The position numbers and the translations under genes are program-made. This document shows positions 50,432-59,191 of a stretch of DNA of 64,000 nt, piece after piece (within the stretch, counting starts at the first letter, position 1; the number at the start of each line of letters is the position of its first letter). This stretch comes from Wickerhamiella versatilis (Eukaryota): assembly GCA_030867685.1 (NCBI GenBank), contig JAQOWU010000008.1:2604001-2668000 (forward strand), in the 5' to 3' direction. The notes below the pieces were generated by a model. It was not told the DNA's origin, ran no database searches, and saw nothing but the letters and a program-made list of their open reading frames with translations.

Positions 50432-51400
50432 CTATCCGGATGAAGTTCTCATTCTCTCCAGTACCTCCTGCTTGCGACGATGCATTGCCAGTTCGCTCTG
50501 CGCTCTCTCCTCTGCCCTCGCAATAACATCAGCATTGTGAGGGTATTCGAGTCCAGTTATTCCGGATGATGCAGCCGGTATTGGCAGTATCCACTCTTTC
50601 CATGTATTTCCCATGATCTGGCATATGTTTTGTCGAGTTCCGACATCCCACATATTTCCAAGAGTTTTGGTAGTCGGTGGAGCACGGTAGCGGAAATTTG
50701 AGCTCGCTAACGAAGTGCGAATAGCTTTACTCTCCATATGCTCCAACGTAGTACGGTTAGACGCCAAAAGCCAAAAAGTGTACCCGAAAAAGGCCCCAAC
50801 AGCCAAGCCCATGACGATGGCCACTATAAGATAAATGAGATAATTCATGACTGGTGGAACATCTGGATCACCATTAAGGTAACTCCTCAGCCACAGTATC
50901 CCTGATACATCTGCTGTACCACATAGAAGGGTCGTATACACAAGACATTGAATAAAGTATTTTTGGTTGTGCAGACCAAGGCAGCATGTGAACCAAGGGC
51001 AATGATGATCCATTCTCAGTGTGCATTTTCCACATTTCCGGCAATGATGTGCTCTATCCGGCTTCCAACGTGCGCATTTGTTGCAAAAGCGGTAGCTACC
51101 ATTATCCTTTGCCTCAAGTGAGCCTGCAATACAGTCTGGTACACCTGTCTCCTCATCACCTAAGAGTTCAGGAAAGTCAGAGGTATATCCAGGGGATACA
51201 ATCCACACATTATTATAGGATACCCACGCGCATATACCGGTAAATACACCGGCCATCCCTAGGAACTCCCCCAATATACCACCTACCGAATAGCTAACCG
51301 CCAAGTGCGTCAAGACACCCCATATAAGTAATGCGTTCACAGCTACTCGTGGGAACCAGGTGAATATCCCGAAAAACCCAGCAAGACACCGATCTAGCAT
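50432..51400 (-). CDS. PFA3: DHHC palmitoyltransferase Pfa3
   Basis: FCNKCARWKPDRAHHC..C..C.LRMDHHCPW, N.TTLE, N.WDVG...N..QIMG..W.EW.LP. Confidence 0.9.
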   Translation of the reverse strand: MLDRCLAGFFGIFTWFPRVAVNALLIWGVLTHLAVSYSVGGILGEFLGMAGVFTGICAWVSYNNVWIVSPGYTSDFPELLGDEETGVPDCIAGSLEAKDNGSYRFCNKCARWKPDRAHHCRKCGKCTLRMDHHCPWFTCCLGLHNQKYFIQCLVYTTLLCGTADVSGILWLRSYLNGDPDVPPVMNYLIYLIVAIVMGLAVGAFFGYTFWLLASNRTTLEHMESKAIRTSLASSNFRYRAPPTTKTLGNMWDVGTRQNICQIMGNTWKEWILPIPAASSGITGLEYPHNADVIARAEERAQSELAMHRRKQEVLERMRTSSG

Positions 51401-51877: not shown

Positions 51878-52972
51878 TCATTGGTTGGTTTCTTCCTTTT
51901 CAACTGGTACAGATTGCAGACGTTCACTGCTCGCAGCGGCACCATACTGCTCAAGCTCAACCTCATCCAAAATGTCATAAATAATATCTTCGGCAATATG
52001 CTCATCAAACCGTTTGAATAGAGGTTGTCCCGGGTGATCAGTTTTTCTAAAATTAGGACCAAAATTAAATCGTGCCTGGCCTCCTTCAAATACCGAGATA
52101 GTCGGGAAATAACCACATTCTCCATCATCGCATGGTGATATCTTGTGGCCAGGATCGAATTGCGACCAGGGTGGCAGGAAATTGCGTAAATTGGAGGCAA
52201 GTCTCCCCTGAAAATTCCCGTTTTTATATATATCGATGAAACTCCCGTCTATAACCTCTTCCTGAGTAGGGGGTATCAATTTTCCAGGAAGCAGTAATTC
52301 ACGCATGGCTTTAGGCTGCTTATAATCAATAACTTCGTAATAAATGCGATCCTTAAACTTTATAGGATATCTGTTGCGCACTGTAGGCTTAGAGCCCTGC
52401 GGAGGTATGAACAGATGAAATCCTATCACATCGCCAGAGCCAAATGGCTCCATGAATGGCTTAGGACGCCCACCATGCAATGCGCTTCCACGTAAATTCT
52501 GGACTCCATAACTGTAGACATCAGCACCAACAGGCCCTTCACAGCTCATTTCCCGTCGTGAGATACCCACCCGTACAGCTGCAGTATCCTCCTCCGAGTC
52601 CAGCGAGGCATGAACCACGTCCACCTCCCAGTACCAACTACCACTACTCATAAAAACATTAGCCCGTGCACTGACATAACCAGTTGTTGTGGTCACTGCA
52701 TCATCACTATCCCTAATAAGAGCCTTGGGACTACGATCCAATTCATTCAGGCCTGCACGGTACGGTGGGGGCTCACAGCGTTGGTATAATACGCATGGAA
52801 GCTGAGGATAGGCTTTGCATGGAATATAACGAAAGCCTTTCCGATAACGAGGATGGTCCTCCGTATGTTTAAATTCCGCCCTGGAATCAGCCTCTGCTCG
52901 TCTTAACTTGTCAGGAACAAGCTCGAGATCCGCCTCACCAGGGAATGGTGGTAGCACCGCCGAGTTTGTCAT
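51878..52972 (-). CDS. BRE2: COMPASS subunit Bre2/Ash2 (SPRY domain)
   Basis: RKGFRY.PC, SARAN, VRVGISRRE....PVG.D.YSYG, GDVIGF, GYFPTIS.F.GG..RFNFGP and a Sdc1-binding helix at the C-terminus. Confidence 0.88.
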   Translation of the reverse strand: MTNSAVLPPFPGEADLELVPDKLRRAEADSRAEFKHTEDHPRYRKGFRYIPCKAYPQLPCVLYQRCEPPPYRAGLNELDRSPKALIRDSDDAVTTTTGYVSARANVFMSSGSWYWEVDVVHASLDSEEDTAAVRVGISRREMSCEGPVGADVYSYGVQNLRGSALHGGRPKPFMEPFGSGDVIGFHLFIPPQGSKPTVRNRYPIKFKDRIYYEVIDYKQPKAMRELLLPGKLIPPTQEEVIDGSFIDIYKNGNFQGRLASNLRNFLPPWSQFDPGHKISPCDDGECGYFPTISVFEGGQARFNFGPNFRKTDHPGQPLFKRFDEHIAEDIIYDILDEVELEQYGAAASSERLQSVPVEKEETNQ

Positions 52973-55796: not shown

Positions 55797-56780
55797 ATGG
55801 GATTGGGTCTCGGTGATTTGCCTGCCCGGACGCGCCCCATTCTGGCTGCCCTACCGCAAGGACTACGGACACTGAAGTGGCGTAGCCCACCTCGTAACAT
55901 ATTTATTGCCAAAAAAGATTTAGATAGTGGTGTTCTTGACAAGACAAGATCGTTTGCTCAGCATCTGCATAAGAATTATGATGTCAATATACTTGCCGAG
56001 GAACATGTGAGTCGCGAATTAGGTATGAGAGAAGTGAGAGGTGTAGAGCCGTCAGTTTTACGCGAGTATTCGGATTTGATAGTGACCATTGGGGGAGATG
56101 GTACCATCCTGCGTGCGGCTGCTCTGTTTAAACAAGTGAAAAATGAAATACCACCCGTTCTCAATATTTCCATGGGTACATTGGGTTTTTTGCTCCCCTT
56201 TAATTTCTCTGATGCCCCTGAGGCTTTTTCAAAGGTCTATAATAGCCAGAGTATAGTGATGGAGCGATCACGACTTGCTATCCGGCTCCCAAAAGGTGGC
56301 ACAGAGGTCCATGCGATAAATGACCTTACAATCCATCGTGGTTCTTCACCGCACCTTGCTCAGTTAGATATTGCGGTTAATGGTCAACATGTCACAACGG
56401 CTATTGCAGATGGCGTCACAGTTTCCACTCCTACAGGATCAACGGCATACTCTTTAAGCAGTGGTGGGTCAATTGTGCATCCAGGCGTGCGCTGTGTATT
56501 ACTGACTCCCATATGTCCTCGCTCACTTTCGTTCAGGCCTCTGATTTTTCCTGAGACATCCGAGATTTCGATATCAGTTAATGCACAAGCCCGTGACTCT
56601 TCCCGGATATCTATTGACGGAAGCGAAGGCCCATACTTGGGCCGAGGAGATAATATTGTGGTGAGTGCTCATTCTAATGAAGGACTATGGTGTGTAGCAC
56701 GGGAATCCGAGACACGTGACTGGGTTTGCCATCTCAATGACCTCTTAGGATTCAACTCAAAATTTGGGGTTTCCCACTGA
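55797..56780 (+). CDS. POS5: NADH kinase, Pos5-type
   Basis: L.W..P..NIFIAKK, TIGGDGTIL, MGTLGFLLPF, HAIND, ADG...STPTGSTAYSLSSGGSIVHP, PICPRSLSFRPL, LLGFNSKF. Confidence 0.9.
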   Translation: MGLGLGDLPARTRPILAALPQGLRTLKWRSPPRNIFIAKKDLDSGVLDKTRSFAQHLHKNYDVNILAEEHVSRELGMREVRGVEPSVLREYSDLIVTIGGDGTILRAAALFKQVKNEIPPVLNISMGTLGFLLPFNFSDAPEAFSKVYNSQSIVMERSRLAIRLPKGGTEVHAINDLTIHRGSSPHLAQLDIAVNGQHVTTAIADGVTVSTPTGSTAYSLSSGGSIVHPGVRCVLLTPICPRSLSFRPLIFPETSEISISVNAQARDSSRISIDGSEGPYLGRGDNIVVSAHSNEGLWCVARESETRDWVCHLNDLLGFNSKFGVSH

Positions 56781-56816: not shown

Positions 56817-58127
56817 TTATTCTAAGTTCATTGGCTCTTCGTATTCATTTGATGCTACTATACGCGCATCACGCTCAGCCTGGGTCCCGCCCGAGGCTTC
56901 TTTCGCCTGGTTAGAATCATCTTCAGGGACTGATTCATCTTGAAACGTACTTCTAGGCACCTGCTGCATCTGAACTGAGGGTGCTGCTTTCGTAGGTGCT
57001 AAATTACGAAGCACCTGTGTAACTACTTGATTGAGATACTCTGGTGTATTTGCATTGAGCATATTTGAGGCAGGGACTTCAAGCTTGTAATTCGGGCCAT
57101 AATAATCATAGTAATCATTATACGGTATCTCAACTGGGAGCTGCTGTCCAGCACAGATAGCCGTCTCATAAGCCCATGTACGAGCAACATTTCGCATGGT
57201 ATACCCCCCTCCTCCTAAAACTAGGGTAGGTAGGTTGAAGCGCTTAACAAATTCAATACACTTTGCGTGTCCCATCATAGAAAGGTTGAAGGAGCCAAGC
57301 CGGTCACCACTGAGAGAGTCGGCCCCACTCTGTAGGACAATGGCACCAGGCTGGTACCACTCAATAATTTTGGAAACAATAGGCTGAAACACTTGTTGAT
57401 AGGAATCATCATCAATTCCATCCTTAAGAGGAACATTTACAGCATAGTGCTCACCCTTATCCACCCCTATATCTCGAATATCACCTGTTCCTGGAAAATA
57501 TTGCCCAAACTTATGGAAGCTGCAAGTAAGCACGCGATCAGTCGAATAGAATGCTTCCTCCACTCCATCTCCATGGTGAATATCCAAATCAATGTACAAA
57601 ACCCTCTGGTGAAATCGCAAAAGCTCAATAATGCCAAGGCATACGTCATTCACATAGCAAAATCCCGAAGCCTCTTTTCGCTTGGCACTGTGCATCCCAC
57701 CAGCCCAATTAATAGCTATATCACACTTTCCTCGATTTAAACGAGCTGCTCCTTCCATAGAGCCACCTCCACTTATTCCGCAGTATTCGAAAAGACCATC
57801 AAATACGGGACAATCATCACCAACATGAAACTTCCCCAGAGCATCAGTATATTGGTCCACATTATCAGGGGTCACACGACTCAAGAAGTCTACGTATTCG
57901 TCTGTGTGAAACTGGCTCATTTCTTGCTTTGTTGCCGGTTTCGCTCTATAGATCTCCATGTGCTTGTGTAGGCCATAGTTCATAATGAGGGCATGAGCCA
58001 TCCGAACTCTATGTGGTTTCATTGGGTGGCCTGCCCCATAAGAATAATTTCCGATGTCCGCGTCATAGAAATACGCGACGCGCTTTTTATCCGCCGGCCG
58101 GAGATTAAGGTTGTCGTCCCCTGCCAT
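56817..58127 (-). CDS. RPD3: Class I histone deacetylase Rpd3, with a His-to-Ser change in the HH motif
   Basis: [55 protein letters not shown]. Syntenic with PEX6, MDJ2 and PFA3. Confidence 0.93.
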
Positions 58128-58156
58128 GTGGTGGCTGATGTAATCTGACTTTGAGG

Positions 58157-59191
58157 ATGCCTCGGTCAAAAGACTCTATTCAAAAGCAGCCTGATGTAAA
58201 TTTGAAGGTCGAGAAAGAGCAGAGTCACTGGTTTGAGCTTGCCATATGTATTTCAGGCATTTATGTGAGCTTTTTGACTTGGGCAATATTACAAGAGCGT
58301 GTATCCACGACACCATATGGTGAGGATGCTCGAGTTTTTCGCGCGTCGCATTGTATTATGGCTATACAAAGTACCTTAGCATGCATTACTGGTCTTTTAT
58401 TCCTGACCTGGAAACGGAAAAGTGGTAACTCACGAGCGCAATACCCCTTAATACCAAATTGGGCTGTGGCCCGGGGTTATATCATAGTAGCTGGGGCTCA
58501 AGCGTTATCAAACCCATTCCAGTATGGAAGCCTACGCTATGTAGATTACCTGACCCTCCTACTTGCCAAGTCTTGCAAATTAGTTCCTGTTATGCTTGTG
58601 CATGTCGTTCTATATCGCAAGCGCTTTCCTAGCTACAAGTATGTCGTGGTTGCTCTTATCACCGCCGGAGTTTCGCTCTTCAGTATATACCATCCGTCTG
58701 AAAAGTCTAAGTCCTCGGGCGCGGACGAGCACTGGTGGTGGGGTCTTGGTTTATTGGGTATTAATTTAGTGCTTGATGGCATTTACAATACTACACAGGA
58801 TGAGCTATTCTCCAAACATAAAGTAATCAGCGGTCCACATATGATGGTGGTTCTGAACGCACTTACTATGACTATTAGTCTCATTGCTCTCGTTTCTACG
58901 TCTGCGCAGTATAATGAGGTTTTATGGTTCGCAAAACACCACCCCATTTTATATAGAGATATTTTACTCTTTGGATTGTGTGGAGCATTGGGACAAATAT
59001 TTATATTCATCACACTGGAGTACTTTGGATCACTTGTGCTGGTTACAACCACCGTAACTCGAAAAATGGCCAGCATGTTGCTCAGTGTCGCTATCTTCGG
59101 CCATCACCTATCATCTATGCAGTGGGTAGGTGTAAGCCTTGTGTTTGGTGGAATTGCTGGTGAGGCCATTTGGAAGCGTCTTAGGTCCTAG
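58157..59191 (+). CDS. HUT1: UDP-galactose transporter homolog (Hut1/SLC35B1)
   Basis: [51 protein letters not shown]. Confidence 0.95.

Follow-up and report, generated by a model that had tools for sequence, protein, structure and literature searches.

A serine at the catalytic histidine position of one of two Rpd3 paralogs in Wickerhamiella versatilis, probably retained as a pseudo-deacetylase subunit of Sin3 complexes

What can a yeast do with an Rpd3 deacetylase whose active site holds a serine where Saccharomyces cerevisiae Rpd3 has His151, the general acid/base that corresponds to HDAC1 H141 and HDAC8 H143? The case arises in a 64,000-nucleotide stretch of compact DNA from Wickerhamiella versatilis, a yeast of food fermentations (contig JAQOWU010000008.1, hereafter the window), in which an original prediction, made from the sequence alone, had read a syntenic Rpd3 with the second His of the HH dyad replaced by a Ser codon, AGT at 57689-57687. 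The codon is where it was said to be, in a minus-strand open-reading frame (58127-56817) that encodes a 436-aa Rpd3 (P0001, hereafter the Ser copy; Table 1), and in the standard code at least two base changes separate AGT from any His codon. Alignment to the solved Rpd3 chain places Ser147 at His151 of S. cerevisiae Rpd3 (offset +4), in agreement with the predicted equivalence, and the zinc ligands and tyrosine described as intact are present (D182, H184, D270 and Y309). Of the features that mark an active class I deacetylase, the Ser copy therefore has the zinc ligands and the Tyr but lacks the His-His dyad, which reads His146-Ser147.

Table 1. Features of the window discussed in the text (window positions; residues numbered as in the Ser copy)
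Feature	Position	Strand	Basis or remark
DHHC palmitoyltransferase gene, presumably PFA3-like; synteny marker, 5.4 kb off	50432..51400	-	Pfam; homolog directly beside RPD3 in L010-L012
SPRY-domain gene, which we take to be Bre2/Ash2 of COMPASS; 3.8 kb from RPD3	51878-52972		
NAD kinase gene, presumably POS5-like; synteny marker	55797..56780	+	Pfam; homolog beside RPD3 in L010 and L012
RPD3 paralog, His151->Ser, 436 aa, P0001, intronless ORF	56817..58127	-	RNA reads of run X23 over the gene
Y309 of GGGGY, kept; presumably the catalytic tyrosine (from class I HDAC structures)	57201..57203	-	sequence
D270, kept; presumably the third zinc ligand (from class I HDAC structures)	57318..57320	-	sequence
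D180, D182, H184 and D187, all kept; taken to be charge-relay aspartates and two zinc ligands (from class I HDAC structures)	57567..57590	-	sequence
Arg150, Lys in 127/127 background sequences; corresponds to Clr6 Lys141	57678..57680	-	alignment offset
AGT, Ser147 at the place of Rpd3 His151	57687..57689	-	alignment, reads, same Ser in P0002
Met145 (Leu in 127/127 background sequences) and His146 (first His of the dyad, kept)	57690..57695	-	
UAA-family transporter gene, presumably HUT1-like; synteny marker	58157..59191	+	Pfam; homolog near RPD3 in L010 and L012

The protein matches PF00850 (Hist_deacetyl) at E=1e-84, its best PDB match is S. cerevisiae Rpd3 (E=4.8e-214), and it falls among the Rpd3 proteins of the Wickerhamiella/Starmerella clade, not with Hos2; judged by its sequence, the Ser copy is an Rpd3 by descent. 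Further changes near the active site are L149M, K154R, Y211F and E213Q (S. cerevisiae numbering), which we take to fall together in catalytic or rim loops, and rim charges are altered at E213Q, K230E and R239K/N.

The substitution is real and the gene is expressed. We mapped four read runs out of 24 listed, with variant letters listed from a 5% threshold, and all four cover 57687-57689 without an alternative letter; no indels occur in the Ser copy among these runs, and the RNA run X23 has a mean depth of ~124 in the bin of the Ser codon. Run X7 is possibly the source of the window DNA and X15 is near-identical (2 differences), X23 and X17 are more independent witnesses, each with SNPs of its own. 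Sequencing error at the Ser codon, which the original prediction had thought unlikely, is ruled out by the agreement of 4/4 runs, and RNA editing back to His is ruled out by run X23, whose RNA shows no other letter.

The serine is shared by a relative. Among the best 120 of 7090 homologs, 119 carry LHH and one, P0002, carries MHSAKRKE, as P0001 does; it comes from another lineage, is 90% identical to P0001 and is found on 2 Logan contigs. A motif-centred search (best 120 of 3029 matches) returned P0002 as its only Ser carrier and 93 new sequences that were all LHH, and a metagenome scan for further Ser types gave three loci, all HH-type outgroups, so that two Ser-type sequences (P0001 and P0002) are known among the matches listed. 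The named species that come nearest in these listings, Wickerhamiella sorbophila (71.5%) and Starmerella bacillaris (67.5%), put the yeast in the Wickerhamiella/Starmerella clade. We also surveyed 150 representatives of 50% clusters, 131 of which span the motif: 123/131 have HH and 8/131 do not, the eight comprising one misaligned segment, four sequences without the first His and three without the second. These three are Raphanus HDA7, one degenerate sequence and a putative HDAC1 of the protist Streblomastix strix (KAA6386228.1, P0317; 50% identical, uncharacterised), which has Asn for the second His but resembles the Ser copy, by convergence, in its Met before the dyad and its kept zinc ligands and Tyr. 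A Met directly before the dyad is found in all three sequences without the second His (P0317, P0331 and P0374) and in the window (57693-57695), and in 10/128 HH motifs among the representatives. In the literature on Starmerella/Wickerhamiella histone deacetylases we found no report of a Ser-type Rpd3 copy, most subscription papers lying outside the search.

A profile search of the genome returned five Hist_deacetyl matches, which we take to be Hda1, Hos2, Hos3 and two Rpd3; a Hos1-like gene was not found among the five, the assignment being made by reading of the sequences. The second RPD3 lies on contig C7 (L003:1165-2484, protein P0122), has an intact HH and shares 62.8% identity with the Ser copy. 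That the sole RPD3 has gone dead is ruled out by this paralog; the organism has therefore not lost Rpd3 catalysis, and the substitution is the less surprising for it. Of the proposal that the window holds a subfunctionalised copy with an active paralog elsewhere, the part that stands does so at the level of sequence, with the HH-type RPD3 on C7. Fourfold sites between the paralogs are saturated (15/90 identical), and the Ser copy has therefore survived a long time. Close to its active site the intact paralog has diverged too (P39A, C110N, D114E/G115N/L116M, C120F and A157P), and its specificity or inhibitor sensitivity may, from these residues, be different from that of canonical Rpd3. At residue 95, the place of S. 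cerevisiae Arg99, both Ser-type proteins have Asp and the intact paralogs Ser/Gly; Arg99, a basic residue, has been described as the vertex turned towards the nucleosome in Rpd3S (PMC11006229).

The neighbourhoods of the two copies bear on which of them moved. Three metagenome loci (L010-L012) from more distant yeasts, encoding two distinct proteins, have DHHC and NAD kinase genes next to RPD3 and, in 2/3, the UAA transporter close by, and the window has nearby homologs of all three neighbours; the claim of a syntenic Rpd3 is thus borne out against outgroup yeasts. Around the C7 copy, 17 ORFs over ~19 kb gave no match to the window or to L010-L012 except RPD3 itself and an antisense ORF inside it. 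The window copy shares its neighbours with the outgroups and the C7 copy shares none, which points to the copy at the ancestral locus as the one that lost the histidine, and to the relocated C7 copy as the one that kept it. Whole-genome or block duplication finds no support, the C7 neighbourhood being without matches and Sin3, Rxt2, Rxt3 and MRG being found once each. In a maximum-likelihood tree of 23 sequences hand-picked from 273, the intact copy is sister to Starmerella (UFBoot 95) and the Ser copy branches off basally within the clade, on a weakly supported node; on the same set a lineage-specific duplication is not rejected by AU tests (p 0.28 and 0.16, from 5000 replicates, a number flagged as too few).

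Among the mapped runs the Ser-copy coding sequence has 11 variant positions, two of which were dropped (56927, seen in 3/50 reads, and 57424, a partial variant with loose ends from the HOS2 gene L002), and among the retained fixed strain SNPs 8/9 are synonymous (p=8e-4 under a null of transitions only, 4e-5 under the other null). Between the two Ser-type proteins, P0001 and P0002, 7/242 conserved and 34/191 variable columns differ, the differences avoiding the conserved columns (Fisher p=2e-7), and between the intact P0122 and P0106 the counts are 6/242 and 28/191; on the assumption, built into the comparison, that one sister species is the source of both P0002 and P0106, the Ser copy appears to be as constrained as the catalytic copy. 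Among the 242 conserved columns, which were defined on 127 background sequences that are not independent, 18 are changed in the Ser copy only, 18 in the intact copy only and 4 in both. The stems of the two copies in the tree are of similar length (0.39 and 0.41), whilst the terminal branch of the window copy is 0.125 vs. 0.032 in its sister. A pseudo-deacetylase, understood as a deacetylase that has lost a catalytic residue and is expressed and under purifying selection, describes the Ser copy in each respect.

How much activity the serine would leave can be gauged from mutants of the same histidine. In S. cerevisiae, rpd3-H151A is described as abolishing activity with complex integrity kept (PMC2699518), KDAC8 H143 is needed for turnover whilst substrate binding is only slightly impaired in H143A (PMC13718912), and HDAC11 H143A has ~0.3% activity left on a myristoyl substrate (10.1101/212043). 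By analogy the Ser copy would be at most weakly active, bearing in mind that the published mutants are His to Ala, not His to Ser, and that the Ser copy still has His146 and every other catalytic residue. The suggestion of an altered acyl specificity, which the original prediction had also offered, finds little support, as long-chain deacylation by HDAC11 also needs the equivalent His (10.1101/212043).

The surfaces and partners of a Sin3 complex are in place. The Sin3 contacts K41/R280/R316 of Rpd3 (PMC10709384) correspond to K37/R276/R312 of the Ser copy and are kept, and the change of K154 to Arg, at the place of a Sin3 contact in Clr6 (Lys141; PMC10115800), is conservative; a usable list of Rpd3 interface residues was not found in the accessible portions of PMC11006229, PMC10542350 and PMC10432269. 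Profile searches, whose counts are lower bounds, found at least one match each for Sin3, Rxt2 and MRG (Eaf3), one Rxt3 gene, two members of the Sds3 family, two ING matches, one of them closest to Pho23, and one two-PHD gene that matches Cph2/Rco1; there are four CAF1C_H4-bd matches in the genome. The Ser copy thus combines kept Sin3-contact residues with the presence of partner genes, as would be expected of a subunit of Rpd3L or Rpd3S. Rpd3L contains two Rpd3, one of which is occluded by Leu80 of Rxt2 (PMC10224958). This plug residue aligns to Leu54 of the Rxt2 of this genome (L007:1102-1971), in an alignment that is significant against S. pombe Rxt2 and not significant against S. cerevisiae alone, and F147/F202/L268 of Clr6, which receive the plug (PMC10115800), are kept as F156/F211/L277 in the Ser copy and equally in the intact paralog. 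Just upstream of the plug, Leu38 replaces the Arg of the NRG motif of S. cerevisiae and S. pombe Rxt2, possibly a co-evolved change. A complex prediction with both paralogs and Rxt2 residues 25-84, run without alignments, returned a score of 0.00 and no verdict.

We consider the scaffold pseudo-deacetylase of the original prediction the best of its options: the Ser copy probably serves in Sin3 complexes as a pseudo-deacetylase subunit, and its paralog would do the catalysis. RPD3 would have duplicated in a lineage of the Wickerhamiella/Starmerella clade and the two copies would have split the ancestral jobs, the relocated C7 copy retaining catalysis and the ancestral-locus copy losing the general acid/base His whilst keeping the fold, the zinc site, the lysine tunnel and the Sin3-binding surface. 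Selection would hold the Ser copy as a pseudo-deacetylase subunit that aids complex assembly, and it probably still grips acetyl-lysine or the Rxt2 plug without turnover. Non-catalytic repressive roles of Rpd3 are on record (PMC3866184).

The same residues can be read in other ways. The Ser copy could still be an enzyme, slow or retuned, with His146 or a water held by Ser147 as acid/base and with other acyl groups or activated substrates as possible targets, Met145 and the rim changes reshaping the pocket. This would fit the retention of the zinc ligands, His146, both relay aspartates and Tyr309 in both species, as well as the clustering of L149M, K154R, Y211F and E213Q in catalytic or rim loops. 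The kept residues, however, also serve folding and ligand binding, so that catalysis is not required to account for them, and with the equivalent His mutant of HDAC11 down to the residual activity given above (10.1101/212043) and rpd3-H151A resembling the deletion in assays (PMC2699518), we hold a working enzyme to be unlikely. It is quite unlikely, too, that the Ser copy has no fixed seat and acts as an acetyl-lysine trap or dosage damper, entering either lobe of Rpd3L or Rpd3S at random or binding acetylated targets, and so shielding marks or lowering total deacetylase output. The single Sin3 match would favour such random entry, since lobe choice cannot then depend on two different Sin3 proteins, as it does in S. 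pombe; the residues of the tunnel are kept, and KDAC8 H143A has been proposed to sequester acetylated substrate (PMC13718912); yet some rim charges are changed, and the equal numbers of conserved-column changes (18 and 18) and the similar stems fit divided roles better than a poison subunit.

A redundant duplicate that is decaying into a pseudogene, or an artefact of assembly or sequencing, would be compatible with the intact paralog, with the longer terminal branch of the window copy and with C271S and C283S, which occur in the window copy alone. Against it stand the identical codon in 4/4 runs, the absence of indels, the RNA coverage, the synonymous nature of 8/9 SNPs, the 90% identity to P0002 with differences off the conserved columns and the long survival implied by fourfold saturation between the paralogs; it is largely refuted and very improbable.

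Within the preferred reading of a pseudo-deacetylase subunit, the most economical seat for the Ser copy would be lobe II of Rpd3L, in which Rxt2 plugs the Rpd3; the second Rpd3 seat of this complex is thus blocked by nature, and this would supply a mechanism for a dead copy. We therefore raise, as a tentative proposal that could well be wrong, that the paralogs divide the seats of Rpd3L, the intact copy taking the open lobe (and Rpd3S) and the Ser copy sitting permanently in the Rxt2-plugged one. In S. cerevisiae, nucleosomes are reported to unlock the distal Rpd3 site, which then contributes to activity (PMC13183676), so that the second seat there is not purely structural. The reason for a second, blocked deacetylase copy has been called unclear (PMC10224958, PMC13183676, PMC10115800). 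If the proposal holds, this yeast would be a natural experiment indicating that the second seat of Rpd3L can be purely structural, and a homodimer would have become a heterodimer of catalyst and scaffold, the birth of a pseudoenzyme in a core chromatin enzyme. Tagging cannot tell two identical Rpd3 apart, whilst distinguishable paralogs let the seats be separated genetically and, with one paralog lacking the catalytic His, would let catalytic and scaffold roles be separated in the same way. The scope is narrow, with two known sequences.

Several known systems resemble this one in part. S. cerevisiae Rpd3 with the engineered H151A (PDB 7YI0/8GA8; PMC2699518) is of the same family and length, has lost the same His and likewise keeps the zinc site and the Sin3-contact residues, but the Ser copy is natural, fixed in at least two lineages, carries Ser rather than Ala and coexists with an intact paralog. 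HDA7 of Arabidopsis, a class I HDAC of Brassicaceae proven to be naturally inactive and unable to bind zinc (PMC10920125), is like the Ser copy a lineage-restricted class I HDAC duplicate, kept though inactive (for the Ser copy, probably so), and Raphanus HDA7 also lacks the second His, reading MHR. In contrast, HDA7 has lost the XDXH zinc ligands (PMC10920125), whereas the Ser copy keeps DIHH, all zinc ligands and the Tyr, and so, though not of its type, it may by analogy work like HDA7; it would be a natural, zinc-intact class I pseudo-HDAC of the substrate-trap type, unlike HDA7. RPD3 is also duplicated in the yeast Candida albicans, where Rpd3 and Rpd31 partition between Rpd3L and Rpd3S (PMC5111407). 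Those paralogs are near-identical apart from a tail at the C-terminus and are described as having kept one and the same activity (PMC5111407), unlike the pair described here, which is 63% identical with one member lacking a catalytic residue. In S. pombe SIN3L, Pst1 and Pst3 divide the open and blocked lobes, a precedent for partition of paralogs, but in that complex it is Sin3 that has two copies, with a single Clr6 working in either lobe (PMC10115800), whereas the present genome has two Rpd3 deacetylases and a single Sin3 match.

RPD3 and the UAA transporter gene are divergently oriented, with just 29 bp between their start codons (58128-58156). RNA read ends accumulate at 58116-58120 and at 58160-58161, slightly inside the respective open-reading frames, which suggests very short 5' leaders or a library effect.
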